Shown one piece after another: positions 3,644-22,496 of a DNA stretch of 38,805 nt. The stretch is from a virus: UHGV virus genome UHGV-0123934; one strand, 5' to 3'. How positions within the stretch are numbered: the stretch's first letter is position 1; every line of letters begins with the position of its first letter. The translations under genes were made by a program, and so were the position numbers. A model generated the notes under the pieces. That model was not told the origin of the DNA, made no database searches, and saw only the letters and a list, made by a program, of their open reading frames with translations.

Positions 3644-4579
3644 ATGCGAACGACCCTTAACCTGAATGAAATCATCTCCGAATGGATTTCGGAGTGCGAC
3701 ATACTCCCCGCCACCAAACGGGACTACCGGCGCAAGGTCGCGCTGTGGTTCCGATGGCTGTCGGCGCATGATGTCGATACCCGTTCGCCGGAGCGTCGAC
3801 ACGTCTTGGAGTACAAACAGCAGTTGCAAGCCGAAGGCAAGAGCGTCTATACGGTGAACAGCCTCGTTACGATCCTCAAACTGTTTTACGGCTTCTGCGA
3901 GCGACAGGGCTACTACGGCAATATCGCTGCCGGGATCCGCAGCAGCAAACGCCATACGGAGTACAGCAAACTGCCGCTGACGGCGGAGCAGGCGTTCCGG
4001 CTGTTGGTCAGCATCGATCCCTCGACCGCCATCGGGCGCCGCGACCGACTGATGATTTCGCTGATGCTCTTCAACGGGCTTCGCACCTGCGAGGCGGAGC
4101 GTATCGACATCGGCGACTTCGCCGAGCGCGAGGGGCAACCGATCCTCCGCATTCAGCGCAAGGGACGCACGGACAAGAACGAGATCGTCGTGCTGCATCC
4201 CGACACGGTCGCGTGGCTGGAGGAGTATATCGCCGGCAGGGACTTCGACAGCGACACTCCGCTCTTCGTATCCCACAAGGCGCAATGCGACAACCGGCTC
4301 GTGCGGCAGACGATCGGGCGGATCATCAAACAACGCCTTGCCCGTATCGGCATCTCGCATCCGAAGATCTCGGCGCATTCGCTGCGGCACACGTTCGGGG
4401 CGCTGATGGTCGAAGAGGGGATAGACATCGAGACGATCAAGGATATGATGGGGCACTCCGATACGAAGACCACGCGCATCTATATCGAAATGGCGCAGCA
4501 GCGACGACTGCTCCATCACTCGCCGTCGATGACCATAGGCGATGCGATACTGAAAAACGGCGATAAACCGAAACGATGA
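3644..4579 (+). CDS. tyrosine site-specific recombinase (XerC/XerD-like integrase)
   Basis: C-terminal catalytic signature HSLRHTFGALMVEEGIDIETIKDMMGHSDTKTTRIYIE (H-x-x-R ... Y), upstream Arg in LFNGLRTCE, SAM-like N-terminal domain. Confidence 0.85.
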   Translation: MRTTLNLNEIISEWISECDILPATKRDYRRKVALWFRWLSAHDVDTRSPERRHVLEYKQQLQAEGKSVYTVNSLVTILKLFYGFCERQGYYGNIAAGIRSSKRHTEYSKLPLTAEQAFRLLVSIDPSTAIGRRDRLMISLMLFNGLRTCEAERIDIGDFAEREGQPILRIQRKGRTDKNEIVVLHPDTVAWLEEYIAGRDFDSDTPLFVSHKAQCDNRLVRQTIGRIIKQRLARIGISHPKISAHSLRHTFGALMVEEGIDIETIKDMMGHSDTKTTRIYIEMAQQRRLLHHSPSMTIGDAILKNGDKPKR

Positions 4580-4846: not shown

Positions 4847-5734
4847 TCAATACTCGATTTTGAAATAGTCGAGTACTGCCTTGTAGTTGTCTTGCGCCGT
4901 CAGGCAGGTGTCTGTCAGATACTCCCGAACTTCCGACCAGCGTTGCAGACCGCGATAGTAGAACATCTTCAGGTCGTCGGTGATGATGAACGGTACGATG
5001 CCGTTTGCCAGACACTCCTTGAACATCACGAGCCGCCCGACACGTCCGTTGCCGTCCTGAAATGGATGGATCGCCTCGAAGCGCTGGTGCAAATCGAGGA
5101 TATCCTCCAACGATTTCTGCCGCTTGGCATTGTATTCGGCAAGCAACGCTTTCATCTCCCGACCTACGTTCTCGGGCGCGGTCGTTTCATGGCCGCCTAC
5201 TTCGTTGGGCAGGCGTTTGTAGGTGCCGACGGCAAACCACTCCTTGCGGCTGTCCGATGTTCCCGACTTGAGTAGGGCGTGCAGCTCCTTGATAAGCGAC
5301 TCGGTCAGCCGCTCCTCGGCACGGTCGATAACGAGGTCGATACAGCGGAAGTGGTTCGTCGTTTCGATAATGTCATCTACACGGACGCTTTCGCCCTCGA
5401 TGCCGACGGTGTTCGTCTCGAAGATATAACGCGTCTGGTCGTGCGTCAGTCGGCTGCCTTCAATGTGGTTGGAGTTATAGGTCAGATCGATCTGCGTCTT
5501 GTGGTAAATGCCGCCTTTGAGCTGCATTCCCTTTTGTTCGCGCAGGGCAGCGAGCAACGGCGACAGTTTCGAACGGCGGCGTTTGCGTGCGGGCAAAGCG
5601 GCATCGGCGGGAATGTTCCATGTTTTTCCCGTGAGGAATGCGCCCTCGATTTTACCTTCGGCGCAATAGTTACGCGCCGTGCGCTCCGAAATGCCGTATT
5701 TCTCGGCGAATGCGACTACTGAAATATATTCCAT
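4847..5734 (-). CDS. Fic family protein (Fic/Doc AMPylation-type toxin) with N-terminal HTH
   Basis: Canonical Fic motif HPFQDGNGRVGR; candidate inhibitory-helix motifs SNHIEG and TVGIEG; N-terminal HTH-like FAEKYGISERTARNYCAEGKI. Confidence 0.9.
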   Translation of the reverse strand: MEYISVVAFAEKYGISERTARNYCAEGKIEGAFLTGKTWNIPADAALPARKRRRSKLSPLLAALREQKGMQLKGGIYHKTQIDLTYNSNHIEGSRLTHDQTRYIFETNTVGIEGESVRVDDIIETTNHFRCIDLVIDRAEERLTESLIKELHALLKSGTSDSRKEWFAVGTYKRLPNEVGGHETTAPENVGREMKALLAEYNAKRQKSLEDILDLHQRFEAIHPFQDGNGRVGRLVMFKECLANGIVPFIITDDLKMFYYRGLQRWSEVREYLTDTCLTAQDNYKAVLDYFKIEY

Positions 5735-5845: not shown

Positions 5846-6325
5846 ATGACGAAAGGTCGTAAGAAATTGCCGGATGAATTGAAATCCCTGCGCGGAACGG
5901 ACCAGCCGTGCCGCATGGCCGGCAACGCTGCTTCGACGGGAACCGCCGTCGCGGCATTGCCGCGCTCCGGACTGAAAGGTACAGCGAAGAAGGTGTTCGA
6001 GGTCGTGGCGACGGAGCTGATCCACAAATGCCTGTTGGATGTCGTCGGGGTGGATCTGGTAGTCGCCTATGCTCGCGAGATGGGGTTGTACCACGATATG
6101 ATGCGCGAAACCGAAAAAGAGGGATACACCATCGAAGTGATGACGAAACACGGTACAACGACGGTCGTCAACCCCAAACGCAAAGTCGCCGAATCAGCAC
6201 TCGCCAATGCCAAGGCGTTGGCTGCCGAGTTCGGGTTGACGCCTGCCAGTCGCAGCCGCGTGGCGGCTTTGCTTTCGGATAATACCCCGAAAGACGACTT
6301 CGCCGAGTTCGAGGAGATAAAATAG
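5846..6325 (+). CDS. terS: phage terminase small subunit (P27-family-like)
   Basis: 159-aa protein immediately upstream of the large terminase; conserved-looking stretches AKKVFEVVATEL and GLTPASRSRV. Confidence 0.75.
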   Translation: MTKGRKKLPDELKSLRGTDQPCRMAGNAASTGTAVAALPRSGLKGTAKKVFEVVATELIHKCLLDVVGVDLVVAYAREMGLYHDMMRETEKEGYTIEVMTKHGTTTVVNPKRKVAESALANAKALAAEFGLTPASRSRVAALLSDNTPKDDFAEFEEIK

Positions 6326-6335
6326 TTATCGCAAT

Positions 6336-8003
6336 ATGGCTGCCGTTAAGAAATATCCCGCCGAACTTTATGCCGAGCAGGTGCGCTCCGGCGAGATTCT
6401 CGTCTGCGAGTATGTCCGACTCGCTGTCAGACGCTACTACACCGACCTCGACCGTGCGCTCGACAAGGGATGGTATTTCGATAAGAAAGCCGCTCTGCGT
6501 GCGATCCACTTCATCGAAAAACTCAAACATACCAAAGGCGAGTGGGCGGGACAGCGGTTCCGACTGGAGCCGTGGCAGCAGTTCGTGCTGTGGAATATCT
6601 TCGGGTGGAAGAATGCCGACGGCTCGCGCCGCTTCCGATACGCTTATATCGAGATCGCCCGCAAGAACGGCAAGACTGCGTTGTCCGCCGGTGTCGGGTT
6701 GTATATGCTCTTCGCCGACGGCGAGAGCCGCCCGGAGGTTTACTCGGCCGCGACGGTCAAGGATCAGGCGAAGATATGCTTTTCGGATGCTGTGGAGATC
6801 GTCAAGGCGACCGATCTGAAAAACTACCTCACGCCATACCGAAACTCGATCGTCTATGAACTCAAAGGCGGTACGATGAAACCTCTCTCGTCGGATTACG
6901 GCACGCACGACGGTCTGAATCCGAGTTGCGGCATCATCGACGAGTTTCACGCCCATAAGGACAGCGGAATGTTCGACGTCATCAAGTCGGCTTTCGGTGC
7001 ACGGCGGCAGCCGCTCATGTTCATCATCACGACAGCCGGTTTCAACAAGTCGGGAGCCTGCTATGCCTATCGGGAAAATGTCATCAAAGTGCTGCGCGGC
7101 GTGAACGAGGACGATTCATTGTTCGGCATCATCTACACGCTCGACGATAAGTCGGAGTGGGACGACCCGAAGATGTGGATCAAGGCCAATCCCAACCTCG
7201 GCGTGAGTTTGAGTGCCGACTACCTCGCCGACCAAGTGAAGGACGCCAAGAACCGCCCCGAAGCCGTCCGCAACGTGATGACGAAGAACGTCGATCTATG
7301 GGTCGATGCCGGACGGACGTGGATTTTGGACGATGTATGGATGAAGTGCATCGGTACGATCGATCCCGCCGACCTGAAAGGCTGCGCCTGCTGGGGCGGT
7401 TTGGACCTCTCGAACGTGTCGGATATTACGGCTTACGTGCTGCTCTTCCACGAGAACGACCGTTTCCAGTTGCTGCCGCACTTTTGGGTTCCCGAAGAGA
7501 AGATGCTGGAGAAGATCCGCAAAGAGAATATCAACTACGACAAGTGGGTGGCGGAGGGCTATGTAACCGTTACGCCGGGCAATGTCATCGATTACGACTT
7601 CGTCAAGGCGGATATCCTGCGCATCGTGGCCGATTACGACCTGCGGACATCGGCTTACGACCGTTGGAACTCTTCGCAGACGATCATCGACTTGCAGAAC
7701 GAGGGGATGGAGTGCAACCCCTTCGGACAGGGCTATGGCTCGATGTCGGCGCCGACCAAGGAGTTCGAGAAACTGGTGCTGACCGGGAAGATCGAGCACT
7801 TCGGCAATCCGGTCCTGCGGTGGATGCTCGCATCGACGCTCGTCAAGACCGATCCTGCGGGCAATATCAAACCCGATAAGGAGAAATCGACGCAGAAGAT
7901 CGACGGCATCGTAGCCTCGATCATGGCACTCGGAGAGTGGATGACCGCACAGGCCGACGACGAGAGCAACCCGTATGAAAACAGAGGATTATTGACTTTA
8001 TAA
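6336..8003 (+). CDS. terL: phage terminase large subunit
   Basis: 555-aa protein with ATPase-like IEIARKNGKTALSAG and nuclease-domain acidic residues; position between TerS and portal. Confidence 0.9.
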   Translation: MAAVKKYPAELYAEQVRSGEILVCEYVRLAVRRYYTDLDRALDKGWYFDKKAALRAIHFIEKLKHTKGEWAGQRFRLEPWQQFVLWNIFGWKNADGSRRFRYAYIEIARKNGKTALSAGVGLYMLFADGESRPEVYSAATVKDQAKICFSDAVEIVKATDLKNYLTPYRNSIVYELKGGTMKPLSSDYGTHDGLNPSCGIIDEFHAHKDSGMFDVIKSAFGARRQPLMFIITTAGFNKSGACYAYRENVIKVLRGVNEDDSLFGIIYTLDDKSEWDDPKMWIKANPNLGVSLSADYLADQVKDAKNRPEAVRNVMTKNVDLWVDAGRTWILDDVWMKCIGTIDPADLKGCACWGGLDLSNVSDITAYVLLFHENDRFQLLPHFWVPEEKMLEKIRKENINYDKWVAEGYVTVTPGNVIDYDFVKADILRIVADYDLRTSAYDRWNSSQTIIDLQNEGMECNPFGQGYGSMSAPTKEFEKLVLTGKIEHFGNPVLRWMLASTLVKTDPAGNIKPDKEKSTQKIDGIVASIMALGEWMTAQADDESNPYENRGLLTL

Positions 8004-8015
8004 CACGATACGATT

Positions 8016-8318
8016 ATGAGCAGCAGAAAAATGAACCGAAAACAATACAAGCGTTATCACTCGCCGGTCATCGCCGCCGAGCGCGAGAAAGTCGAAGCGG
8101 AACTGTCGGCGATGAATCCGCTCGAACCCGAAGTGCGGCATTTCCTCTCATTCGAGGGCTTCGCGGAACTATATCTCCGTATGCGTGACCTCTATCCGAC
8201 GCAGTTGGAGGCTTACGAGCGGTTGGAGGATTTCTACATCACCATCACCGGCAAGCGCAGATACTCCGAATTCAGTTCATTCAGGAGGGTGTTGAATAGA
8301 ACGAGAAATATACGTTGA
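8016..8318 (+). CDS. hypothetical protein
   Basis: 100-aa ORF directly after terL, still GC-rich backbone; no motif. Confidence 0.4.
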   Translation: MSSRKMNRKQYKRYHSPVIAAEREKVEAELSAMNPLEPEVRHFLSFEGFAELYLRMRDLYPTQLEAYERLEDFYITITGKRRYSEFSSFRRVLNRTRNIR

Positions 8319-8479
8319 TATATTACATTGGTTATCAATATGAAAACGGAGTGCGATTAACTTTCTATTAAAAAATATGTAAAAAATTATGTAGAGAACA
8401 AAAATTTACTTACCTTTGCAAAAGAAACCCACGAGTGCGAGTCGTGGGCAATGTAAAAACATATAAATACGTTTTTCTA

Positions 8480-9112
8480 ATGAAAAACTTTACAAAAGTA
8501 AGTTTATTTTCGGATTCTACAAATTCCGAGGAACAAAAAATCTATGAGTCGATGACTCGATTCGTAAGTAAAGAACTTTATTTGCTTCCTCAAATGATTG
8601 GGGATGCTTATTCTGAAACTAATGACGAATTGGGGATTCTTCCACCTCACGCAAGAAGGCGGAATAGCCGACCTGTTCGAGTAAATGAAAAGATAGCCCA
8701 GAAATGTGCTGAAATCTACCCCGAATATTTCAGAGAAGTTTCGAGTGGTAAATTTATGCTTTATGTACCGGGATTCGCTCAATTTCACATTGTGAAAACG
8801 AATAGGGGCAAATTGCCTCCCAGACGTACTCGACAAGCTCAAAATGAGGTATATCAACAGAACCTACCATTCAAAGGTTGCCCAATTTTGCATATCGGTC
8901 ATGATCATCAATATGGTCATACAAGTGTAACCTTAATGTTATATGATGCAGGACAATGCGTGTGGAGTTGTTCTTTCAGTGATATTTTGTACATCCAAAA
9001 CTCTACAGCGGAACAGACTATTTCATTGACGCAAACATATAATGATTCTAAGGAGGTTTTTGCCAAGCCAAAAGCCAATGCTCGAAAGAAGGTGACAGTA
9101 GAGGCTATTTGA
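8480..9112 (+). CDS. hypothetical protein (AT-rich island cargo; candidate effector partner of the HTH-ImmA gene)
   Basis: First ATG (8480) of ORF 8435..9112; AT-rich codon usage unlike neighbours; preceded by TAccTTTG -7-like motif (8411-8418) and a 7-bp-stem hairpin (8428-8448); 31 nt upstream of HTH-ImmA gene on same strand. Confidence 0.5.
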   Translation: MKNFTKVSLFSDSTNSEEQKIYESMTRFVSKELYLLPQMIGDAYSETNDELGILPPHARRRNSRPVRVNEKIAQKCAEIYPEYFREVSSGKFMLYVPGFAQFHIVKTNRGKLPPRRTRQAQNEVYQQNLPFKGCPILHIGHDHQYGHTSVTLMLYDAGQCVWSCSFSDILYIQNSTAEQTISLTQTYNDSKEVFAKPKANARKKVTVEAI

Positions 9113-9143
9113 TGCGGACAATTTGTGAGAGCTTAAATGATAT

Positions 9144-10250
9144 ATGAATGTTAATAACAAAATGATCACTATCGCACGAGAAGTGCGAGGAATGACTCAG
9201 ATGCAATTATCTGCGTCTATACCTAAACTATCTCAAGGAAATCTCTCAAAAATGGAAAAAGGGATTATTGGGGTTACGGAGGAAGTTATTGAGAAAATAG
9301 CCTCTGCCCTCAATTTTCCCGTTTCGTTCTTTTATGAAGAATATACATTCCCTCCATTTAGCAATGTATATTACCGAAAGCTCATTACGGCTTCTGTCAA
9401 AAAGATGTCTCAATTGGAGGCTATCTTTAAAACAACTATGTTTGTTGTAGACAACTTGTTGGAGTCTATTGATATCCCAGAATATACCATCCCAGAGTTG
9501 GATGTTGAGAATGAATTTGCAAAAACGAATACAAACAAGACAACCCAGCGAGTTGAAGATATTGCTCGAAGAGTTCGTTTTGTATTGGGCATTCCAGATG
9601 GACCAATAACAGATATTTCGGATATTCTTGAAAAAAATGGTATTATCATTATTGAAATAAATACTGATATGGCAAAATTTTCAGGAATGTCTGCCCAAAC
9701 TCAGAATGGGGCAAAAATAATTTTCTTAAACGGAAATATGTCCAATGATCGTAAGCGATTTACCATTGCTCACGAATTAGGACATATTGTCATGCATATT
9801 CCTTTCATTGCAATATCTGAAGATAGAGATTTGGAGAATGAAGCGAATGTTTTTGCAGGCGAATTTTTAATGCCTTATAAGGATTTTCGTAAAGATGTCT
9901 CTCAATATTTATCATACAACCATTTGGATATGTTGAAGGCATATTGGAGAGCATCGAAACAGGCGATTATTCGAAAGGCATATCAAGATCAAATTATTTC
10001 TGCACAGAAATACCAATCTTTGATGGTACAAATGAGTATGAATGGGGAAAGAAAATGCGAACGCATAATTGTTGATTTCCCTGATCCTAAATTATTAAAA
10101 AAAATAATAGATGTTTTTTACGATGATTTAGGTTATACTCAAGATGACCTTACGCAAGCTATTAGTGTAAATCTTAATAGTTTGCCTTTAATGATTAATA
10201 AAAGACCTAATATGATTTTATTGAGGTCCAAGACCAGAATACAATTATAG
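9144..10250 (+). CDS. XRE-family HTH fused to ImmA/IrrE-type zinc metallopeptidase (COG2856-like)
   Basis: N-terminal HTH (MITIAREVRGMTQMQLSASIPKLSQGNLSKMEKG) and HEXXH motif in FTIAHELGHIVMH followed by E at ENEANVFAGEFLMP. Confidence 0.8.
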   Translation: MNVNNKMITIAREVRGMTQMQLSASIPKLSQGNLSKMEKGIIGVTEEVIEKIASALNFPVSFFYEEYTFPPFSNVYYRKLITASVKKMSQLEAIFKTTMFVVDNLLESIDIPEYTIPELDVENEFAKTNTNKTTQRVEDIARRVRFVLGIPDGPITDISDILEKNGIIIIEINTDMAKFSGMSAQTQNGAKIIFLNGNMSNDRKRFTIAHELGHIVMHIPFIAISEDRDLENEANVFAGEFLMPYKDFRKDVSQYLSYNHLDMLKAYWRASKQAIIRKAYQDQIISAQKYQSLMVQMSMNGERKCERIIVDFPDPKLLKKIIDVFYDDLGYTQDDLTQAISVNLNSLPLMINKRPNMILLRSKTRIQL

Positions 10251-10311
10251 TAGGGACAATATCCATTTAATATTCTTTCCACTTCATTAAGTTTGCCGCA
10301 AAGCAAGTTTG

Positions 10312-11529
10312 ATGAAGTGGTTCCCATTTTTGCATAGAGGCGAGCGGCGCGATATTTCATCGGCCGAGTTCGAGGCTGCGGTGAATAAAGTCATTACCGC
10401 CGACACGGTCGCCGATGCCACGCGCCAGCCGTATATCACTGAGGAGGGCGCACTGAACCTTACAGCGGTTTGGGCTTGCGTGCGAATCCTCTCCGAGACG
10501 GTCGGAACGCTCCCTTTGCACCTCTATCGCCGTACTGCTCGCGGTCGAGAGCGACAGTACGACCATCTTTGCCACCGACTCGTGCAGGCTCCCAACTCCT
10601 ATTCCACACGTTTCGACCTGATGCACCATCTGATGGTCTCATGCGCTCTGTGGGGCAACGGCTATGTCCGCATTTTTCGGGACAAACGCTATCGTCCCGT
10701 TCGGCTGAAGTTCATCCATCCTGCCCGTATCGAGCCGCTCCTTACCGACAACGACGAACTCTTCTACCGATCGGACACGGGCGAACTGCTCCCGAACGAA
10801 GACGTCATCCACTTGCGCGGACTCTCGACCAATGGCTATAAGGGCAAAAGTCCGATCGCCGTCCATCGCGACAACCTCGCACTCTCCGTCTCTGCGCAAC
10901 TCTACGGTAAACGCTTCTTCGATCAGGGCGGCAATATGTCGGGCGTCTTCAAATATCCCTCGACGCTCAAGCCCGAAGCCTACCAGCGGCTCAAGAAAGA
11001 CCTCATCGCCCAATCGGTCGGTTTGCACAACGCTCACGTCCCGCTGCTGTTGGAGGGCGGTATGACCTACGAACGCATCTCCATTCCTCCTGAAGATGCG
11101 CAGTTCATCGCTACGCGCAAGTTCCAAAAGACCGAGATCGCCACCATCTACGGCATTCCGCCGCATATGATCGCCGATTTGGAACGTGCCACGAACAACA
11201 ACATCGAGCATCAGGGAATGGAGTTCGTGCAGTATTGCCTGATGCCGTACCTCGTCCGCATCGAGGAGGAGTTCAACCGCAAATTGCTACGCGAGGAGGA
11301 GTTCGGGGAGTATTACTTCCTCTTCGGTCTGAACGGACTGCTGCGCGGCGATGCCAAGACCCGCTCGGAATACTACAAGAATATGAATATCGTCGGCGCG
11401 ATGTCTGCCAACGAGATCCGCTCCCTCGAAGATATGAACTCCTACGATGGCGGCGACGAATACTTCGTACAAATGAACATGCAGCCGGTAACGACTGCCG
11501 TAAAACCTGAAACGAATGGAACCGAATAA
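10312..11529 (+). CDS. phage portal protein (HK97 family)
   Basis: About 405-aa protein between terminase and prohead protease with portal-like core (GNGYVRIF, SPIAVHRDNLALSV, IYGIPPHMI); ATG at 10312 follows the TTG used by the ORF track. Confidence 0.85.
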   Translation: MKWFPFLHRGERRDISSAEFEAAVNKVITADTVADATRQPYITEEGALNLTAVWACVRILSETVGTLPLHLYRRTARGRERQYDHLCHRLVQAPNSYSTRFDLMHHLMVSCALWGNGYVRIFRDKRYRPVRLKFIHPARIEPLLTDNDELFYRSDTGELLPNEDVIHLRGLSTNGYKGKSPIAVHRDNLALSVSAQLYGKRFFDQGGNMSGVFKYPSTLKPEAYQRLKKDLIAQSVGLHNAHVPLLLEGGMTYERISIPPEDAQFIATRKFQKTEIATIYGIPPHMIADLERATNNNIEHQGMEFVQYCLMPYLVRIEEEFNRKLLREEEFGEYYFLFGLNGLLRGDAKTRSEYYKNMNIVGAMSANEIRSLEDMNSYDGGDEYFVQMNMQPVTTAVKPETNGTE

Positions 11530-12157
11530 TGAAATAGAGATCCGGAGCCTTATCGGCGATCTGCATATCGAGAGCCGCGAGGAGGGAATCGTCAGTCGGA
11601 CGATCGTCGGCTATGCCGCGAAATTCGAGAGTTGGAGCGCCCCTATTATGGGGTGGTTCCGGGAGAAGATCGCGCGGGGCGCATTCGACGGGTGCGACCT
11701 GTCGGACGTCATCATGTGTTTCAACCATAACACCGATTCGATCCTCGCCCGCACGACAAGCGGGACGCTGCGATTGGAGGTGGACGACGTCGGTCTGCGC
11801 TTCGCGTTCGAGGCTCCGAATACGACTTCGGGGAGCGATATGCTGGAGTTGGTACGCCGGGGCGACGTCTCGAAATGTTCGTTTCGCTTCGGCGTCGAGC
11901 AGGACGAGTGGCAGTATGCCGACGAGCAGAACGGTCTCGCGATGGACGAGCGGACGATACTCCGGTTCTCGCGTGTGGTAGATGTGTCGCTCGTGGTATT
12001 TCCTGCCTATCCCGAAACCGAAGCCTCGGTGCGGTATCTCGAAGAGCGGAAAGCCGAGTGGTTATCATCAAATAAAACGGAAGCATCGAATCATTCTTAT
12101 AAAATAAAATCTCGAAACCGTTTGTGTGATTTTCTTAAAGTTGCAAATAGGCACTAA
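11516..12157 (+). CDS. HK97-family prohead protease; C-terminal about 30 codons AT-rich, possibly altered by the adjacent island
   Basis: VGYAAKFES, REKIARGAF, CFNHN, KCSFRFG motifs; start overlaps portal stop. Confidence 0.8.
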   Translation: MEPNNEIEIRSLIGDLHIESREEGIVSRTIVGYAAKFESWSAPIMGWFREKIARGAFDGCDLSDVIMCFNHNTDSILARTTSGTLRLEVDDVGLRFAFEAPNTTSGSDMLELVRRGDVSKCSFRFGVEQDEWQYADEQNGLAMDERTILRFSRVVDVSLVVFPAYPETEASVRYLEERKAEWLSSNKTEASNHSYKIKSRNRLCDFLKVANRH

Positions 12158-12176: not shown

Positions 12177-12206
12177 GTAACAGCCGATGATTTCATCGGC
12201 TGTTAC
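12177..12206 (+). other. perfect 14-bp inverted repeat gtaacagccgatga-tt-tcatcggctgttac (terminator or operator)
   Basis: Read directly from the sequence; lies between the prohead protease stop and the first R-M island gene. Confidence 0.5.
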
Positions 12207-12236
12207 TTGTTATACAAATTAAGTAAATAAAGCATA

Positions 12237-12815
12237 ATGAAACTACGAATTCCAAACTCGGAAGTTCAAGAACTTCTAACCGACAAGTCTTTTGAGTATC
12301 CTAAATACGCGACTCAAATTATGAACTTGGCGAATCAAAATGCACAAGGTACTCGTCCGAATATTGTAGGTCAAATGAGCGACCTGATTCAAGAATTCGG
12401 AGCGGGATCGATGATTGAATGGGATGCTTGGTATAAGAACGGTCACCCGGAAGCGATTAAGACTGCAACCGAACGAGTATATCGGATGATTGAATTATTT
12501 AAAGAGAGTATTCAGACCATCGATAAGGATATGGTCCGAAAATGGATCGAAGAGCTTGTTGTTGTCAAAACTTATTGCGGATTAAAATTCCAAGAGGCCA
12601 TTCTCCGTAAAATTGCAGAAGAAAAGCAGTCGGACTACAGATTGGCGACCCCAGAAGAAGAAGCACAAGGTATAGATGGATTCATTGGAAATTCCCCGGT
12701 TAGTATCAAGCCGATCACGTATCGGATTATGAATGAACTACCGGAGCACATCGATGTGCCGATTATTTACTATGACAAGAAGAAATCAGAAATAGTGGTT
12801 GAATATAATTTTTGA
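12237..12815 (+). CDS. putative type II restriction endonuclease (or REase subunit)
   Basis: 192-aa AT-rich ORF convergent with the DNA methyltransferase in the same island; call rests on gene context only. Confidence 0.35.
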   Translation: MKLRIPNSEVQELLTDKSFEYPKYATQIMNLANQNAQGTRPNIVGQMSDLIQEFGAGSMIEWDAWYKNGHPEAIKTATERVYRMIELFKESIQTIDKDMVRKWIEELVVVKTYCGLKFQEAILRKIAEEKQSDYRLATPEEEAQGIDGFIGNSPVSIKPITYRIMNELPEHIDVPIIYYDKKKSEIVVEYNF

Positions 12816-12819
12816 TATT

Positions 12820-13440
12820 ATGCCATATACTGGAGGACCATTGAATACATTAAATGGGAAAATGGGTATTTCTGCTCCGGAGAATAGTGTACCTGTTATG
12901 AAATTAATTCGCATACATCATCCTAAAAGTAAAGAGGAATTAGTCGAATTAATAAAATGGCATTCTGAAAACAAGTGTGAATGCGGTATTATTAGTAGAG
13001 GAACGGTTGAACAATTTGGGAAAAATTTATATGAAGCTCAAAAAGCATTTTGGGGAGAATATAAATTTTCATTAGCAATATGCATCCAATGGGAATATGA
13101 TTTATTTGTTTTACAATCATTAAAAGGTTCTTTGGTTGAAGATGCTGCTATTAGGACTTTAGAGACCCAATTAGAGCCTGAATATGCTTTTTTAGAAGCA
13201 ACCGGTTATATGGATGAAGAATTGCGAATTGATATTATTTGCAAATATAACAATAGCATTATTGCCGGCATTCAGGTCAAACCTTTAACATTTTTAATGA
13301 TGAGACGAGAAATTATTACTTATAATGCTATGGCTAATCAAAAATGGGATAAACCTGTATATTATTTATATTATGACGAAAATGAAAATTTCGTAAATAT
13401 TGAAGAAGTAAAGTCTCATTTAAAATCATCGATTCTTTAA
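12820..13440 (+). CDS. hypothetical protein, R-M island (possible second REase subunit or specificity factor)
   Basis: ATG at 12820, 5 nt after the upstream stop; AT-rich; stop overlaps the MTase stop (convergent). Confidence 0.35.
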   Translation: MPYTGGPLNTLNGKMGISAPENSVPVMKLIRIHHPKSKEELVELIKWHSENKCECGIISRGTVEQFGKNLYEAQKAFWGEYKFSLAICIQWEYDLFVLQSLKGSLVEDAAIRTLETQLEPEYAFLEATGYMDEELRIDIICKYNNSIIAGIQVKPLTFLMMRREIITYNAMANQKWDKPVYYLYYDENENFVNIEEVKSHLKSSIL

Positions 13441-14582
13441 AATGTTAATGCAATCTGCGTTCGGGAAGGAATAGAAATAATACGCTTTCTATTCCCTACT
13501 TTTATTTCAGCAGTGACCGGAATAGTGTCCGCATATTCAGCAGTAATCATGTGATTGTTCCCTCTTATTGCAGATAAATAGACGAACCGCATATCTGTTT
13601 CTTGTGAAGTCATGACCGGCATCTGGAGATGCTCGTTGAAATGTTTGATCTCTTTATTTTGCGTTCGTTGCGAAACGAATTCTTTATGTGCTGCTATTCG
13701 ATTAGCAATAACTTCGTTCATTTGGTCAACCGATGATGAATGAATATTATCGGCTATAATATCTATAAACTTATCATCAATTTCATAACCAATACTATTG
13801 CGATTGCTCATGATAGATGCAATCGTAGTTGTACCGGTTCCTAAAAAAGGATCCATTACCGTATCTCCTTGCAACGAATACATATTGATTAGACGGTATG
13901 GAACTTCCAATGGATAGGCTGCACTCCTGTCTCGACTTTCTGCTGATATTTTTTGTTTGGTACCTTTTATATTGTCCCACAAATCGGAAAACCACACATT
14001 GCGTTCCTCCCAAAAGAACGAACTCTCACGGCGTTTCTGTTTGTCTATTGCAGATTTGAATTCGCGTTTACCTCCTTTGCGAAAAATCAAAATCCATTCG
14101 TGTTCCAATGTTACATATGCTCCTGCAGGAAGCATTCCGGACCCCATAAATTTATTTGGAGCATTCGTTTGCTTCCTCCAAATAATGTTTGGAAGATTTA
14201 CATACCCGTGAGCGGTGAAATAGTTAATTATACGGGAATGATTGGAGTATAAAGCAAAATTGCCATTGAATGTTCGCGTCGCATCACCGACATTGATACA
14301 GACGATTCCACCCGGGACAAGGACACGTGTCACCTCATCCCATACTTTATCCAGCTCTTGATGCATTAATTCAAAAGCCGCATCCGGCTGGTTTTCATCA
14401 AGGGCATTTGCAATACAAGGATTTTGTTTGCTTAATATCTCATCCCACATTTGAATCATGGGATATGGCGGAGATGTAACGACTAACTCGACCGAGTTGT
14501 CATTAATTTCTTTCATCTGTTGGGCAGCCCCAGTATATATGCTATGCGTTGTCTTCATAATTTCAAAGCAAAGATAATTCAT
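13437..14582 (-). CDS. DNA methyltransferase, beta-class amino-MTase (N4-cytosine or N6-adenine)
   Basis: Motif IV TSPPY near the N-terminus and motif I DPFLGTGTT further C-terminal (IV before I = beta class). Confidence 0.85.
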   Translation of the reverse strand: MNYLCFEIMKTTHSIYTGAAQQMKEINDNSVELVVTSPPYPMIQMWDEILSKQNPCIANALDENQPDAAFELMHQELDKVWDEVTRVLVPGGIVCINVGDATRTFNGNFALYSNHSRIINYFTAHGYVNLPNIIWRKQTNAPNKFMGSGMLPAGAYVTLEHEWILIFRKGGKREFKSAIDKQKRRESSFFWEERNVWFSDLWDNIKGTKQKISAESRDRSAAYPLEVPYRLINMYSLQGDTVMDPFLGTGTTTIASIMSNRNSIGYEIDDKFIDIIADNIHSSSVDQMNEVIANRIAAHKEFVSQRTQNKEIKHFNEHLQMPVMTSQETDMRFVYLSAIRGNNHMITAEYADTIPVTAEIKVGNRKRIISIPSRTQIALTF

Positions 14583-14694
14583 TTCCTCCTATAATCCTCC
14601 ATTATTCAACTTTATTCTAAAATTGCGACAAAGTTTCCTTTTAGAGGCTGTTCGGTGGATTAAGTTTGCTCCCGAAGAATCAATAACGAGATTT

Positions 14695-15894
14695 ATGAGC
14701 AAACTGAAAACCCTTAAAGAGAGCCGTGCTGCCGTGTTCGCAAAGATCGACGAGTTGCGTACCGCGACCGACGGTCGCGAGATGACCTCCGAGGAGCAGG
14801 AGAGGTGGAACACGCTGCTTGCGGAGTACGAGCAGGCCGACCGAGCTGTCGAAGCCGAGGAGCGCTACGTCGATATCGAGCGCCGGCAAGCCGAGCAGCA
14901 GTATGTTCGACAGACTTCCGGCGAGCAGCCCGACGAACGTCGTGCCGAGGAGTACCGCACCGCTTTCCGCGACTACCTGCTGCGCGGCGCAGCGGATATT
15001 TCGCCCGAGCACCGGACACTCTTCGAGCAGCGCGCCGGCATCACGGGTTTGTCGGGCGGCGTGATCGTCCCTTCGTCGCTGGCCGACAGCATCGAGGTTG
15101 CGCTGAAAGCCTACGGCGGGATGTTCGAGGCGGGTTCCATTCTCACCACGAGTAAGGGCGGCGACCTGATTATGCCGACGGTAAACGATACCGATGCGAG
15201 GGCTACGGTCGTTGCCGAATACCAGCAGTCGACCAAGTCCGCACCGTCGTTCGGCTCCGAAACGCTCAAAGCCTATACCTACCGCACGCCCATCGTTCCC
15301 GTGTCGTTGGAGCTGTTGCAGGACTCGGCATTCGACCTCGAATCGCTGCTCTCGGGTCTGCTGGCCGAGTCGTTCGGACGGGGCATCAACTACGACCTTA
15401 CGCGCGGCGACGGCAAGGGCAAACCCAAGGGCATCGTCGAGTGGGCGCACGCCTGTGCTACTAACCCCTCTGCTGCAGGCATCTCGCTCGATGCTCTGAT
15501 CGAGCTCGTCAAGGGCGTGGATTCCTCCTATGCCCGACACGGGCGGTTCATGTTCAACCGCAATACGCTCTACTCGCTCGTCAAGATCAAGGATACGACG
15601 GGACGCTACATCTGGCAGGAGGGTGCGAAGGACGGCACGCCGCCGACCTTGTTCGGCAAGGCGTATATCCTGAACGACGACCTCGACGATGCCGCAGCGG
15701 GCAAGACTTCGGTGTTGTTCGGCGACTTCTCGAAGTTCAAGATCCGTATGGTCCGATCGTTCCGCGTGATCCGCCTGAACGAGCTGCTCGCCGAGTACCT
15801 TTCGATCGGGCTGTTCGGCTTCGCCCGCACGGACGGCATCCTGTTGGACGCCGGTACGCACCCCGTCCATAAGTTGGTGCATAAATCGGCGTAG
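14695..15894 (+). CDS. phage major capsid protein (HK97 family) with N-terminal coiled-coil delta domain
   Basis: ATG 14695 inside ORF 14623..15894; charged coiled-coil N-terminus then capsid-like core; position after prohead protease. Confidence 0.85.
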   Translation: MSKLKTLKESRAAVFAKIDELRTATDGREMTSEEQERWNTLLAEYEQADRAVEAEERYVDIERRQAEQQYVRQTSGEQPDERRAEEYRTAFRDYLLRGAADISPEHRTLFEQRAGITGLSGGVIVPSSLADSIEVALKAYGGMFEAGSILTTSKGGDLIMPTVNDTDARATVVAEYQQSTKSAPSFGSETLKAYTYRTPIVPVSLELLQDSAFDLESLLSGLLAESFGRGINYDLTRGDGKGKPKGIVEWAHACATNPSAAGISLDALIELVKGVDSSYARHGRFMFNRNTLYSLVKIKDTTGRYIWQEGAKDGTPPTLFGKAYILNDDLDDAAAGKTSVLFGDFSKFKIRMVRSFRVIRLNELLAEYLSIGLFGFARTDGILLDAGTHPVHKLVHKSA

Positions 15895-17249: not shown

Positions 17250-17602
17250 TGGATTTCAAGAAACATCTGATCGCGCTTTTGGAGCGTGAGATTCCAGAAT
17301 TGGCGGATAAGATTCAAGCCGGTGCGGTCGATGCCCGGACGCCTGCGCCTTTCGCCGCGTTCTCCGTACCGGAAGAGACGCCCGTAAGGACGCTACACGG
17401 CATCGTCGGCTATCGGACGATGTTCGAGGTAGCGGTCTATGACAGCAGGTTCTCCGGTGCGGAACGCCTCAAGCATCGGGTGATCGCCGCCTTGGAGGGT
17501 GCGGAGTTCGACGGCAAGCGCAGCCGCTTCGTCTCCTCGGCGGCGGAATACTATGCAGACTACGACGTGCACGGTGCGACGATGACATTCAGAATTGTTT
17601 AA
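17246..17602 (+). CDS. putative tail completion/terminator protein
   Basis: 118-aa ORF overlapping upstream stop (ATGA), last gene of the head-tail joining block; no motif. Confidence 0.4.
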   Translation: MMDFKKHLIALLEREIPELADKIQAGAVDARTPAPFAAFSVPEETPVRTLHGIVGYRTMFEVAVYDSRFSGAERLKHRVIAALEGAEFDGKRSRFVSSAAEYYADYDVHGATMTFRIV

Positions 17603-18242
17603 CCCAATCCGTAAAATCGAGTTTTATGAGTTGCCAGATTTTATTTTCAAGACAAACAGGGTCGGGATCACCATCCGCTCTCGTAAAATCGGTCAATCCC
17701 GCAAGGCATTCTTCGCGCGATGCTCCGTAGGGATATCGTGCTGCGTATAAAGCGAGCAGCTGCTCGATAGAATAGGCATTATGAAGAAGATGCAAATCCC
17801 AAAAGTCCTTTTTACGGCCGCCGCGGGCGATAACATCCATCTTCATCGCAACGATGTCGTCTACGGACGCCATACGGATCGTATCGTGCTGCTCTGCCGG
17901 GCGGATGAAGTCATCCGTATAGAACAGGTCGAGTTTTACGGACTTTTCCCGGTTCTGTCCGATGATATATGAGGCCCCGAAGCCGACGATTTCTCCGCAA
18001 TCACCCTGACAATAAGGAAACTCTTTGCGCAGAATATCCTGCAATTTATGGAAATCCAAAGATCTATACTCGGCATCGGTAAATAGATCTATATCGTCGG
18101 ACATACGATGTCCATAGCGCAAACTGAGCGAGGTGCCGCCGACAAGGCGGAACGGGGCGAATGCTTCGAGAGTCATCAGATGTTCGAGTGACGACCGCAG
18201 AATGGGTTTGACAGTATGGTATTGCAACGCTTTATGCTTCAT
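17589..18242 (-). CDS. nucleotidyltransferase, AbiEii/AbiGii toxin-like (DUF1814-like)
   Basis: N-terminal FRLVGGTSLSLRYGHRMSDDIDLF (GGT...S.DIDL polymerase-beta-like NTase signature); start overlaps upstream partner. Confidence 0.75.
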   Translation of the reverse strand: MKHKALQYHTVKPILRSSLEHLMTLEAFAPFRLVGGTSLSLRYGHRMSDDIDLFTDAEYRSLDFHKLQDILRKEFPYCQGDCGEIVGFGASYIIGQNREKSVKLDLFYTDDFIRPAEQHDTIRMASVDDIVAMKMDVIARGGRKKDFWDLHLLHNAYSIEQLLALYAARYPYGASREECLAGLTDFTRADGDPDPVCLENKIWQLIKLDFTDWVKQF

Positions 18243-18753
18243 AATCGAGATATTGCTTCAGGTTCTTTTTGATAACCGATGAGAATGGAGATGACGGCGA
18301 TAATCCGATCTTGCTTAAAATGGTTTCTCGACCATAAAAACGGATGGTTTCGATGATCTCTTCTTCATTGCCTCGCTCCATTACGCGATTGATAACGTAA
18401 CTGCTATGGGCATCCCAATTGATATTGTCGAACGATGTGTCCCAAAACAGGGAAGGTCGGTATTTTTCGAGATCCGGATGGTGAGCGGACGAAAGTTTTC
18501 GCTTCTCCTGCACAATGTCGTAGTGAACCTGCAGGGTCATGAGTATGCCTTCCTCTAATGCGAGCGCATGTTCGATTCGCAACGACAGCGGAATATTCAT
18601 CGACCTGCGGCCGCGAATAATGGCGCTTATGGTTTGGGGGTGCTCACCGATAGATTTAGCGAACCGACCGCTTTTCAGGTTTCGATTATTCAGCTCGCGT
18701 TGTAAGAAGAGTCCCGGATGTACTCCTTTCAGTATGTCGATTAAATTGTTCAT
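18232..18753 (-). CDS. HigA-like HTH antitoxin/regulator with C-terminal extension
   Basis: VHPGLFLQREL ... ISAIIRGRRSMNIPLSLRIEHALALEEGILMTLQVHYDI resembles the HigA/VapI antidote HTH; 11-nt overlap with the NTase gene; ATG at 18753 (track start 18762 is TTG). Confidence 0.6.
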   Translation of the reverse strand: MNNLIDILKGVHPGLFLQRELNNRNLKSGRFAKSIGEHPQTISAIIRGRRSMNIPLSLRIEHALALEEGILMTLQVHYDIVQEKRKLSSAHHPDLEKYRPSLFWDTSFDNINWDAHSSYVINRVMERGNEEEIIETIRFYGRETILSKIGLSPSSPFSSVIKKNLKQYLDYEA

Positions 18754-18817
18754 ACAACGCAAAAGTAAACATATTTGTTTATTTTAACAAATTTTATGCC
18801 GAAATATTTTTACGCTT

Positions 18818-19258
18818 ATGCCTGAAACTTACGGAAACAAACAGGTCGTCCAAGGCGAGGACATCATCCTCTTGGTGGACGATAAGACGACGCTCCACGC
18901 CACGACGCACACGCTGAAGGTGGATTTGGAGATGAAAGAACTGCGCACGAAAGATACTGACGGCAAAGAGAAGTGGCCGGGCGATGTTTCGTGGTCGGTG
19001 GACGGCGACGGACTGGTGGTCATCGACGATTCGATCGAGAACAGCCATACCGCCGAGGAAGTCCTCGACTTGGTGCTTCAAAAGAAACTCGTCGAGGTGG
19101 TCGTCAAATCGCCGCTCACGGGACTCGCGAAGATGTACACGGGCAAAGCCTACATCACGACATTCTCGCTCTCGACGCCTGCGGGCGATAACGCTTCTTA
19201 CAGTTATTCGCTTACCGGCAGCGGCAACCTGACACCTGTAGACAAACCTAAATCCTGA
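18818..19258 (+). CDS. phage major tail protein (TP901-1/phi13-like)
   Basis: C-terminal YTGKAYITTFSLSTPAGDNASYSYSLTGSGNL typical of siphovirus major tail proteins. Confidence 0.8.
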   Translation: MPETYGNKQVVQGEDIILLVDDKTTLHATTHTLKVDLEMKELRTKDTDGKEKWPGDVSWSVDGDGLVVIDDSIENSHTAEEVLDLVLQKKLVEVVVKSPLTGLAKMYTGKAYITTFSLSTPAGDNASYSYSLTGSGNLTPVDKPKS

Positions 19259-19263
19259 CCGCA

Positions 19264-19623
19264 ATGAAAGAGATCATCATTCAAGGTACGCCGCGTCCGA
19301 TCCATTTCGGACTGCGCGCCATCGACGAGTTCGTCAAGCAGCGCGGTGCGGAGTTCGGGCAGACGGTCGCTTCGACCGACGCTCTCGGATCGCTGGACAG
19401 CATCGTTGCGCTGACCGCTACGGGTCTCAACGAGGGCGCACGGCGTGCCGACAGCGACCGTCGCTACACCGAAGACGAGGTGTGGGACATCTTCGACGAG
19501 GAGCCGTCGCTCATCCTCGCTGTCTCGGAACTCTTCGTTGAGAGCATCGCGCCGCTGACGGATAAGTTGGGCGACCTCTCAAAAAACGGGAAACGCCCGA
19601 CGACGGGGAGCCGCAAGCGGTAA
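19264..19623 (+). CDS. tail assembly chaperone (gpG-like)
   Basis: 119-aa acidic protein right after the major tail gene; slippery heptamer near its 3' end. Confidence 0.6.
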   Translation: MKEIIIQGTPRPIHFGLRAIDEFVKQRGAEFGQTVASTDALGSLDSIVALTATGLNEGARRADSDRRYTEDEVWDIFDEEPSLILAVSELFVESIAPLTDKLGDLSKNGKRPTTGSRKR

Positions 19624-19946
19624 CCTACGAGCGGTGGTTCGCCATCGCCGTCGGGCAGATGGGACTGGCACCCGAAGCCTTCGAACGCCTGACGCCCGCC
19701 GAGTTCATCTATGCGTGGCTCGGCTGGGCGAAACGCGAGGAAGACCGGCAGCGGCAGGCATGGGAGCGCGAACGGTGGGCGGTATGGGTTACGACTTGCA
19801 TCCAGCTTGACCGCAAAGACCGCCGACCGATGACCGAGATGTTCCCGCTGCCGTGGGAGGAACCGACGGCTCCCGCAAAGCAAGAACCGACCATGCAGGA
19901 ACGCATGGAACGAATCGAAGAAATGAAACGATGTATCCGAAAATAA
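19264..19946 (+). CDS. tail assembly chaperone G-T fusion via predicted -1 programmed ribosomal frameshift
   Basis: A_AAA_AAC heptamer at 19581-19587 in the gpG frame; the -1 frame is open from the slip site through ORF 19659..19946 (KKRETPDDGEPQAVTYERWFAIAVGQMGLAPEAFERL...). Confidence 0.55.
19581..19587 (+). other. -1 slippery heptanucleotide A_AAA_AAC
   Basis: Codons tca aaa aac in the gpG frame; manual frame tracing shows no stop in the -1 frame downstream. Confidence 0.55.
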
Positions 19947-20440
19947 CCTTGATTATCCTGACGATCGCAGCCAGCGGCTGCTCTCCGCTCCGAAGCACGC
20001 GATCCGAGCGGCACGAAACGCTTGCCATCTCCGACTCGACTGTTACGGAACTGGTCCGGCAGGAGTTCGGGCGGCAGATCGGAACGCTCCGCCGAACCGT
20101 CGTGGAGTTTTATCCGCCGACGGAATATCCGGAACCGAGCGACGATCGATTCCCGAATCCGATCGATACGCTCCGTGCCGTTCTTTCGCCTCCGAAAATT
20201 CCGGCGGCGAGCGCTTCCCGACAGCCGGTCAAACGCATCTCCTATACCGAGGTATCGATGCAGAATGACCGAACTATCCTTATCGACAGCATTTCGCATA
20301 GCCGCATCAACACGGCAGCCCGCAACGACGTGCAGGAGCAGACCGACGAGCAACCATCCTCCGGTGTCGCGTGGCTCAAATGGGCGACGGCGCTCGTCGC
20401 ACTGACGCTTCTGCTGCTCTTATTCCTCAAACTCCGATAA
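19931..20440 (+). CDS. putative lipoprotein with C-terminal membrane anchor
   Basis: ATG 19931 inside ORF 19853..20440; signal peptide with lipobox LTIAASGC; C-terminal hydrophobic helix WATALVALTLLLLLFL. Confidence 0.5.
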   Translation: MYPKITLIILTIAASGCSPLRSTRSERHETLAISDSTVTELVRQEFGRQIGTLRRTVVEFYPPTEYPEPSDDRFPNPIDTLRAVLSPPKIPAASASRQPVKRISYTEVSMQNDRTILIDSISHSRINTAARNDVQEQTDEQPSSGVAWLKWATALVALTLLLLLFLKLR

Positions 20441-20450
20441 CCGAACCCAT

Positions 20451-21233: not shown

Positions 21234-21240
21234 TACCGAC

Positions 21241-22017: not shown

Positions 22018-22020
22018 ACA

Positions 22021-22105
22021 ACTGAAAATAAATACGATAATAGTCGCCGAATAACTTGCGTGTTCCGAATAACGATGTTATGTTTGTCATGCAATAAACA
22101 ACTAA
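22021..22105 (+). promoter_or_regulatory. Promoter/leader repeat copy 1 (-33 TTG 22056-22058, -7 TAtgTTTG 22079-22086)
   Basis: Conserved about 85-bp element also at 22497, 23311, 23957 and 24588; motif spacing 20 nt fits the Bacteroidota sigma promoter pattern. Confidence 0.6.
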
Positions 22106-22118
22106 AATAGAGCGAATT

Positions 22119-22422: not shown

Positions 22423-22444
22423 ACCTCGATGGAAGCAGATGGAA

Positions 22445-22475: not shown

Positions 22476-22496
22476 TTTCGCTGTAAGCGTAAATAA

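Follow-up and report, generated by a model that had tools for sequence, protein, structure and literature searches.

RosmerTA (RmrT/RmrA) anti-phage toxin–antitoxin systems (Millman et al. 2022; Ernits et al. 2023, PMC10440598) pair diverse toxins with the RmrA antitoxin, and in 58% of them the toxin gene comes first (PMC10440598; 10.1101/2022.05.11.491447). The RosmerTA system of Gordonia phage Kita is phage-borne and defends against phages (PMC10440598). In Streptococcus pneumoniae, the toxin of the RipAB pair (Spr1630/Spr1629) is encoded in the same operon as the antitoxin that antagonises it (10.1101/2025.09.02.673660). Two further signal-responsive switches, ImmR/ImmA of ICEBs1 and CapH/CapP of CBASS, also combine an M78/ImmA-type metallopeptidase with an XRE HTH; in these, HTH and protease are encoded separately, and cleavage of the repressor by the protease de-represses neighbouring genes (an integrase or the CBASS operon). 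As for the genomic sites that such systems may occupy, Rousset et al. (2022) are said to have described P2/P4-type defence hotspots of temperate phages and satellites.

We analysed a stretch of 38,805 nt from virus genome UHGV-0123934 (the window). A low-GC two-gene island between the terL-adjacent gene and the portal gene had been proposed in the first-pass annotation; all of its described features are present, at the coordinates given or within ∼20 nt of them. We conclude that it is a Rosmer-type cassette with a new partner family, situated in a defence-cargo hotspot. It is probably a self-contained, horizontally mobile two-gene toxin–antitoxin cassette of the RosmerTA type that serves an Alistipes prophage-like element as defence cargo. 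The island and its surroundings are as follows.

5846–6325: terS, left flank
6336–8003: terL, left flank, with TerL_ATPase and TerL_nuclease domains
8016–8318, + strand: small phage core ORF of 100 aa after terL; left border, outside the cargo
8299–10252, no strand assigned: cargo cassette (the low-GC island), between the small terL-adjacent ORF and the conserved portal-promoter segment
10255–10320, + strand: conserved phage segment forming the right border, conserved in sister phages with unrelated cargo
10255–10263, + strand: GACAATATC, part of the right-border segment
10279–10296 and 10303–10320, + strand: 18-nt inverted repeat spanning the portal start codon
10288–10295, + strand: portal −7 box TAAGTTTG, part of the right-border segment
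10309–11529: portal gene, right flank (PF04860, E=4e-103)

The GC content is 0.351 over 8299–10252, compared with 0.559 in the left flank (5846–8298) and 0.550 in the right flank (10253–12157). Comparison with sister phages refined the true cargo borders to ∼8298 on the left, within the last codons of the small ORF, and to ∼10252 on the right, directly past the stop codon of gene B (see below). Sister phages with different cargo part from the window sequence exactly at these borders (8299/10252), and the cassette is collinear with two relatives that bear the same cargo (L001 and L014). Within the small ORF the breakpoint falls after ...GGGTGTTGAATAG, the last ∼7 codons coming from the cargo; the ORF is kept in relatives regardless of cargo, with identity of 95–100% in the closest sisters and 38–64% in phages with an empty slot. 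The inverted repeat at the right border shows compensatory changes among sister phages, and the hairpin predicted from it has a dG of −22 kcal/mol (z = −6.6).

The cassette encodes two proteins, A and B, whose order and spacing of 31 nt agree with the earlier description of a 210-aa gene upstream of an HTH–peptidase gene.

8480–9112, + strand: gene A, 210 aa, basic (pI 9.1), candidate toxin/effector in the RmrT position
9056–9073, + strand: short motif VFAKPK (aa 193–198 of A), in an otherwise low-confidence C-terminal tail
9144–10250, + strand: gene B, 368 aa, RmrA-type antitoxin with XRE HTH, M78/ImmA Zn-peptidase and C-terminal domain
9174–9329, + strand: XRE HTH of B (HTH_3, aa 11–62; Pfam 1.5e-5)
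9648–9977, + strand: Peptidase_M78 (M78/ImmA) of B (aa 169–278; Pfam 2e-21)
9771–9785, + strand: HELGH of B (aa 210–214)

The ORF of gene A opens with GTG at 8435; the plausible start is the ATG at 8480, which gives the 210-aa product. For gene B, the fusion of an XRE HTH to an ImmA/IrrE-type peptidase with a HELGH motif, first read from the letters of the sequence, is borne out by the two Pfam domains. HELGH is intact and ENEAN is found at aa 231, the active-site HEXXH...E thus being complete; the 7-pair A–B alignment shows no variation at its positions H450, E451 and H454. The same fusion had been placed among antitoxin-like HTH–ImmA proteins (COG2856-HTH) without RosmerTA being named; PADLOC identifies B as a full-length RmrA, with 14 RmrA models matching and the best of them (E=6.3e-58) covering aa 2–344 of 368. 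Among PHROGs, B matches phrog_2439 (2.7e-80), a family annotated as ‘transcriptional regulator’. The NCBIfam model NF052239 (antitox_spr1629) matches aa 7–350 with 128.4 bits (E=3.5e-37); as the cutoff is 335 bits, B is related to the spr1629/RipB family and is not an equivalog. The peptidase part also matches PADLOC capP (E=2e-25, aa 135–280).

The locus thus resembles RosmerTA in several respects: a two-gene operon with the toxin position first, an antitoxin that joins an XRE HTH to an ImmA/M78 zinc peptidase, a partner with no recognisable domain, and carriage by phages as well as other mobile elements. It differs in its partner, since A lies outside all catalogued RmrT models, has by structure prediction a soluble alpha/beta core that may be restriction-endonuclease-like, and bears a conserved C-terminal KPK motif. 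No membrane segment is predicted in A, in contrast to Kita RmrT. At the 17 loci where both genes are readable, the partner co-diverges with this RmrA subfamily, and none of them showed the exchange of partners that is typical of the ImmA/Rosmer network node. With RipAB/spr1629 the cassette shares the HTH plus ImmA-like architecture of B; however, RipA targets the DnaN sliding clamp and is ClpX-dependent, whereas A is not similar to RipA and no clamp-binding motif was recognised in it. In contrast to ImmR/ImmA and CapH/CapP, B combines HTH and peptidase in a single ORF, and A is the sole co-transcribed gene; neither the ORF list nor PADLOC revealed a separate small HTH gene, or a CBASS or other effector operon, in the island.

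Protein A had been said to match nothing. For four family libraries this stands: no family match was found in Pfam, PADLOC (RmrT models included), PHROGs or NCBIfam. Scans of all 13 close members of the A family, down to E = 10, and of all 30 members of the superfamily, down to E = 1, returned single-member noise hits only, and PADLOC gave no match with A, 12 close homologues (E up to 10) or three remote members (E up to 1). Since A matches no RmrT model, automated tools would not label the locus as Rosmer. A profile search of PDB sequences with A found none at E up to 10, a BFVD structure search yielded one marginal hit only, and GenBank phage records held no relative of A, merely short terL/portal matches of 66–71% identity. 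Put so flatly, the statement nevertheless goes too far: the family to which A belongs is sizeable, if highly diverged, and there is a weak signal of a restriction-endonuclease-like fold. Judged by sequence comparison, A is no orphan but one of an uncatalogued, rapidly evolving family of proteins of ∼200 aa.

The two genes are strictly coupled. In every locus with sufficient sequence to check, an A-family gene lies directly upstream of the HTH–M78 gene. The first-pass annotation had listed a lack of co-occurrence elsewhere among the observations that would count against its reading; the two genes co-occur in all other checkable contexts. The contexts comprise three related phage lineages, a Mu-like prophage and sites after prophage lysis genes, as well as integrase-adjacent islands, loci beside Fic or HicA, and a position between hsdM and hsdS. 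The adjacency is strict across at least 10 unrelated genomic contexts, even where identity of A falls to 16–25%, and it recurs in the L103 cassette; the gene order is the same in the 12 measured cassettes, with gaps of 3–67 nt. When genes upstream of distant B homologues were scored against an A profile built without them, five out of five reached 123–187 bits (shuffled controls, ≤8 bits). The divergence of A tracks that of B (Spearman 0.79 over 66 pairs), with A the less conserved protein in 100% of the pairs. The A–B pairing is strict, and the cassette is horizontally mobile.

The leader upstream of gene A contains three further elements. Two of them, a −7-like motif and a 5′ hairpin, had been noticed earlier, and reading of the sequence and an inverted-repeat search located both.

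8376–8393, + strand: two direct TATGTA boxes (8376–8381 and 8388–8393), a direct repeat upstream of the −7 box
8411–8418, + strand: predicted −7 promoter box of the Bacteroidota type, TAccTTTG, from sequence
8428–8448, + strand: leader hairpin/palindrome CCCACGA-N7-TCGTGGG, between the −7 box and the start of gene A

In the alignment of seven cassette copies the TTTG core of the −7 box is invariant, and so are the TATGTA boxes, although the encoded proteins are just 47–74% identical. Four of the five remote cassettes have one or two TATGTA boxes (none in L098). In the seven copies, 92% of cells of the hairpin 8428–8448 are paired, against 25–41% with the partners slid, and there is one compensatory pair; z-scores of the RNA fold range from −2.4 to −3.4. 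A GC-cored hairpin between an A-run and a T-run is found at the same position in 12/12 cassettes, each time with a −7-type box 5–13 nt upstream; in the remote cassettes the stem sequences differ. The −7 box, the TATGTA boxes and the hairpin travel with the cassette. Because remote cassettes hold a hairpin at the same place with unrelated stems, the palindrome is less likely to be a sequence-specific operator; the TATGTA boxes are the better candidate for an operator bound by the HTH of gene B.

The terminase–portal junction, suspected to be a cargo site by analogy with other phages, proved directly to be a hotspot in this phage lineage. Among 79 related phages, the gap between terL and portal ranges from 358 to 3694 nt. 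In sister phages the slot is occupied by Gabija (GajA/GajB, E=1e-157 and 4e-133), by a type II MTase+REase+Vsr set, by a retron-type RT_VI, or by candidate genes like PDC-M43A/B or PDC-M63B; in some it is essentially empty. Unannotated cargo ORFs are also present in the slot. The prohead protease and major capsid genes flank a further variable slot. The closest sisters (portal 97–99% identical) bear other cargo, hence A is not a conserved structural protein of the lineage; a structural or morphogenesis role was rejected because A is absent from these phages and present in non-phage islands. The junction is similar to P2/P4-type hotspots in being a fixed slot between conserved core genes that holds mutually exclusive defence systems in near-identical phages. 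It differs from them in its host lineage, Alistipes (Bacteroidota), in its location inside the packaging/head operon, from the small terL-adjacent gene to portal, and in its right edge, which is formed by the conserved portal promoter/hairpin segment. We found no description of this hotspot in the literature, and no account of the Rosmer mechanism beyond the papers cited.

A defence role for the cassette is suggested by the slot that it shares with Gabija, restriction–modification, retron RT and PDC genes of sister phages. Several non-phage copies adjoin integrases, however, and this also fits a function in stabilising or regulating mobile elements. The cassette would then chiefly serve addiction or stabilisation, or would be a regulatory switch of the ImmR/ImmA kind, in which B is a repressor with a built-in protease for genes of the element and A is a co-regulator or post-segregational killer. 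Such a role agrees with at least five independent contexts outside phages in which the cassette adjoins a tyrosine integrase and forms the margin of an integrative element (L005–L008, L011, L097, L101), with the cleavage of HTH repressors by ImmA-type proteases that controls integrase expression (PMC10440598), and with the pneumococcal Rosmer-family pair RipAB, which works in competence signalling and not in defence (10.1101/2025.09.02.673660). In the window, though, the integrase is 3.7 kb away from the cassette, which sits inside the late packaging/head operon in a slot holding bona fide defence systems in sisters; copies elsewhere occupy typical sites of defence or moron genes, either between hsdM and hsdS or behind the lysis genes of prophages; moreover, stabilisation and defence are not mutually exclusive in TA modules. 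We consider it rather unlikely that the main function is other than anti-phage. Far less probable still is the combination of an ordinary phage transcription regulator with an unrelated moron gene, their adjacency being functionally meaningless. The PHROGs label of the B family, simply ‘transcriptional regulator’, and the lack of a detectable domain in A would suit this combination, but strict adjacency over so many unrelated contexts at such low identity of A, the conserved leader common to both genes and their co-divergence all speak against it.

How A itself would act can be considered from its predicted fold and its conserved residues. Structure prediction gives a soluble alpha/beta core with a weak signal of resemblance to restriction endonucleases, and A could be an active DNA or RNA nuclease toxin of the PD-(D/E)XK type. 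In the 30-member superfamily alignment K106 alone is near-invariant (29/30); E70 and E86 are present in 23/30 and 18/30 members, and no acidic residue stands two positions before K106, so that a conserved catalytic D...(D/E)xK is not seen. With E70 and E86 not conserved in the broader alignment, canonical nuclease catalysis was downgraded, and we regard an active nuclease of this type as doubtful. Conservation is marked in the C-terminal tail, where pLDDT is below 70: within the close family V193, F194, A195, P197 and K198 do not vary, and across the superfamily all 30/30 members have V or A at position 195, 23/30 have P197 and 27/30 have K198, the motif being written [VL]x[VA]KPK. A bolder proposal, which we put forward as a long shot, is that proteins of the A family form a novel class of Rosmer effectors, in which the [VL]x[VA]KPK motif of the disordered tail is a handle for control by the RmrA peptidase (it would either dock there as a pseudo-substrate or be cleaved), while the terminator-like hairpin conserved in the leader would add a second, transcriptional safety layer. 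If true, this would be the first concrete, testable mechanism of toxin hold and release by HTH–ImmA fusion antitoxins.

For the preferred reading, an anti-phage cassette of the RosmerTA type, we infer from the location of the cassette and its family membership that A is toxic, that B neutralises it and that the pair protects against phages. The XRE HTH of B would autoregulate the cassette promoter, probably via the conserved TATGTA boxes near the −7 box, while B would neutralise A with the M78 zinc-peptidase domain as the switch. In the lysogen, B would hold A in check until another phage infects or the element is lost, whereupon B would be inactivated or depleted. A, once freed, may arrest the cell, with nucleic acid as its most plausible target; abortive infection or stabilisation of the element would result.

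RosmerTA systems are widespread, and the questions they raise are how the HTH–peptidase antitoxin senses infection and how it restrains varied toxins. The cassette offers a compact case for both, with a coupled and co-diverging partner, a confident predicted fold, a mutable tail motif, and a conserved leader with a candidate operator. In this family of gut Alistipes phages, near-identical members differ only in the immune system that occupies the hotspot, which is part of their head-morphogenesis operon. The hotspot is useful for mining new Bacteroidota defence genes, its unannotated cargo ORFs included, and it is relevant to the influence of prophages on phage resistance in the gut.

ORF and domain scans showed that the window holds a phage-like element, whose main genes are listed below.

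3644-4579, integrase
4847-5734, minus strand, Fic gene (Pfam Fic, 3e-18; PADLOC candidate system PDC-S04, 5e-112)
5846-6325, terS
6336-8003, terL
8016-8318, small ORF between terL and the island
8480-9112, gene A
9144-10250, gene B, co-oriented with A
10309-11529, portal, after the island
11516-12157, prohead protease
12200-14600, second low-GC block, between prohead protease and major capsid genes
12237-12815, MjaI-like restriction endonuclease, paralogue 1 (Pfam RE_MjaI, 4e-65)
12799-13440, MjaI-like restriction endonuclease, paralogue 2 (weak match)
13437-14582, minus strand, convergent N4/N6 DNA methyltransferase (PADLOC MTase_II, 3e-149)
14623-15894, major capsid protein
Downstream of the capsid gene, adaptor, head-closure and neck genes and the major tail protein (18818-19258)

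The island (8299-10252) has a GC content of 0.351, against 0.559 and 0.550 in its flanks, and contains the two genes, as the first-pass annotation had described. The ORF of gene A opens at GTG 8435; the ATG at 8480 yields the 210-aa product. Gene B (368 aa) begins 31 nt past the stop of A and is indeed a fusion of HTH and ImmA/IrrE-type domains (HTH_3, aa 11-62; Peptidase_M78/IrrE, aa 169-278) with peptidase motifs HELGH (aa 210-214) and ENEAN (aa 231).

RmrA is the antitoxin of the RosmerTA system. Fourteen PADLOC RmrA models match B across essentially its whole length (best E = 6.3e-58, aa 2-344). B is also related to the spr1629 antitoxin family of NCBIfam, at 128 bits versus a cutoff of 335 bits. 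RmrA pairs with different RmrT toxins, and 58% of pairs in the RmrA network node are toxin-first (PMC10440598). E. coli gains protection from two BASEL phages through the RmrTA pair of Gordonia phage Kita (PMC10440598). RipAB, a pneumococcal member, targets the sliding clamp (10.1101/2025.09.02.673660). The A-B cassette resembles Rosmer in its antitoxin, architecture and carriage by mobile elements; it differs in that A has no match among the catalogued RmrT families.

Gene A had been described as matching nothing recognizable. This holds for Pfam, PADLOC (RmrT models included), PHROGs and NCBIfam; moreover, no consistent Pfam match was seen across 30 aligned family members and no PADLOC match for any of 16 members scanned. 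Still, A has relatives. No more than 12 clusters of homologues (46-100% identity), none of them annotated, came out of a word-indexed search through 5.8 billion proteins; when 1.84 billion representatives were searched exhaustively with a profile, 20 proteins reached an E value of at most 1e-3, each 200-221 aa in length except one 57-aa fragment. An identical copy is present in an uncultured Alistipes sp. MAG, on a 282-kb contig; close homologues occur in only two of 100,044 species-representative genomes, both Alistipes. In the reverse approach, we started from five B homologues with just 38-45% identity and read the gene upstream of each: all five encode 203-250-aa proteins, and a profile of the A family from which these were left out gives them 123-187 bits (at most 8 bits for 1000 shuffled controls). 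A is therefore a member of a sizeable but very fast-evolving family.

The AlphaFold2 model of A (27 aligned sequences) has pLDDT 83.4 and pTM 0.72. In the predicted core (aa 20-170, mostly above 90 pLDDT), three helices are followed by a three-stranded sheet, one helix, a three-stranded meander and a last helix; this core gives a consistent but weak signal of a restriction-endonuclease-like fold. In the 30-member alignment G140 and T/S117 are kept in all members and K106, P114, Q126 and W162 in 29 each; E70 (23/30) and E86 (18/30) are not conserved, and a (D/E)xK triplet is absent. Canonical catalysis is thus not supported by this alignment, and we regard nuclease chemistry as a weak lead that is rather unlikely to hold. 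Although the C-terminal tail is modelled with low confidence, it carries a family-wide motif, VFAKPK (aa 193-198; K198 in 27 of 30 members, P197 in 23), a candidate docking or cleavage site.

Co-occurrence of the two genes elsewhere proved to be the rule: in each locus that extends far enough downstream of its A-family gene, an HTH-M78 gene comes next, after 3-67 nt. The contexts vary. The cassette occupies the same terL-portal junction in two further lineages of the phage family (loci L001-L004 and L014/L035); elsewhere it lies in integrase-adjacent islands near RteC/HTH_17-type mobile-element genes, adjoining a Fic gene or HicA, beside a sigma factor and FtsK on a chromosome, in a Mu-like prophage, directly 3′ of prophage holin/endolysin genes, or, in L103 (2501-4233), separates hsdM from hsdS in a type I RM system, with a TraG/T4SS coupling-protein gene alongside. 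The A-family protein of the latter cassette is 18% identical to that of the window. Identities of A and B correlate over 66 cassette pairs (Spearman 0.79), with B the more conserved in all 66; between the window and L001 they are 59% for A and 80% for B (88-89% for terL and portal). The fastest-evolving gene of the cassette is thus the one in the effector position. Constant adjacency in varied contexts and correlated identities show that the cassette is one functional unit, moving horizontally.

The predicted leader elements, a −7-like motif (TAccTTTG, 8411-8418) and a 5′ hairpin (CCCACGA-N7-TCGTGGG, 8428-8448), were both present. In an alignment of seven cassette copies the TATGTA direct repeats (8376-8381 and 8388-8393) are invariant, and the TTTG core of the −7 box and the hairpin are also conserved; the hairpin is paired at 92% over these copies versus 25-41% with partners slid, with one compensatory pair. 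All 12 cassettes examined share a layout of −7 box, 5-13 nt, GC-cored hairpin, 17-39 nt and ATG, with an A-run, and usually a T-run too, flanking the hairpin. Five of them are remote cassettes (A 16-25% identical to that of the window) with stem sequences unrelated to one another; TATGTA boxes recur in four and are absent from the fifth (L098). The boxes are a putative operator of B's HTH, and the hairpin may be a structural leader acting as mRNA 5′-end stabilizer, attenuator or read-through insulator.

With the portal as probe we collected 79 related phage loci, where the distance from terL end to portal start ranges from 358-432 nt (small ORF alone) to 3694 nt. Phages with portals 97-99% identical to that of the window have neither A nor B and carry other cargo between the same borders, which bears out the proposed cargo hotspot. 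The cargo includes Gabija GajA and GajB (L020; E = 1.6e-157 and 4.1e-133), a C5-MTase with type II REase and Vsr (L019/L027/L028), a retron-type RT_VI (L017, L036), PDC-M43A and B (L018), a PDC-M63B-like pair (L015/L023/L030/L083) and unannotated ORFs; in L033/L034 (about 90% identical) the slot is almost empty. Slot ORFs without PADLOC match (L015 4445-4828/L030 3279-3719, L040 5241-5924, L062 4295-5764, L071 658-1974 and L076 4894-5691) are, given their neighbours in the slot, candidate undescribed defence genes. The left breakpoint lies within the last codons of the small ORF, and the right one just upstream of a conserved segment in which GACAnnGTC and the portal −7 box TAAGTTTG are accompanied by an 18-nt inverted repeat spanning the start codon of portal; sister phages keep this segment, with compensatory changes, irrespective of cargo. 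The repeat (10279-10320; dG −22 kcal/mol, z −6.6) encloses the −7 box and start codon. It is also found upstream of portal in L014-L040, with GACAnnGTC ∼25 nt upstream of it. Possible roles of the repeat are to regulate translation of the portal gene from read-through transcripts, to terminate transcription of the cargo, or to insulate it.

A second variable slot separates the protease and capsid genes, with a length of 2 to 4587 nt in related phages; it holds a type II RM system in the window (Pfam/PADLOC), an 8xMP membrane protein in L001 and nothing in L014. The Fic gene between integrase and terS has normal GC and is likely another defence or toxin cargo gene; a Fic gene also lies 3′ of the cassette in L009. 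A stretch of lower GC (17589-18762, ∼46-48%) that separates the neck genes from the major tail protein gene carries two reverse-strand genes (217 and 176 aa, the latter matching phrog_1381, 'plasmid antitoxin with HTH domain') and may represent a third moron slot. From the major tail protein on (18818-26216) no ORF exceeds 382 aa, so none is of tape-measure size, and no baseplate or fibre genes were identified among the scanned ORFs. Since the integrase, too, lies immediately upstream of terS, this may be a truncated prophage, or else a satellite or GTA-like element that encodes a capsid but no tail. In this region a DNA methyltransferase (20451-21233) overlaps a PAPS-reductase-like ORF (20869-22017) in another frame, followed by a host-like zinc alcohol dehydrogenase (25176-26216). 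Beyond the phage genes lies a third low-GC island (30288-32780, ∼31% GC). Its 830-aa product has SIR2_2 and novel STAND NTPase domains, weak TPR-like matches and a match to PADLOC ThsA STALD models (4e-15), and is apparently a single-gene SIR2-STAND defence protein of the host chromosome.

Taken as a whole, the island is probably a toxin-antitoxin/defence cassette of the RosmerTA type, with a partner family not yet catalogued, carried at a defence hotspot of a prophage. The main alternative, a primarily element-stabilizing or regulatory role, is suggested by the integrases that often adjoin the cassette outside phages, and is compatible with defence. The Rosmer concept is already established; what this case adds that is useful and can be tested is a partner family that strictly co-diverges, the motif in its tail and the conserved leader, together with a clean cargo-swapping slot in gut Alistipes phages.
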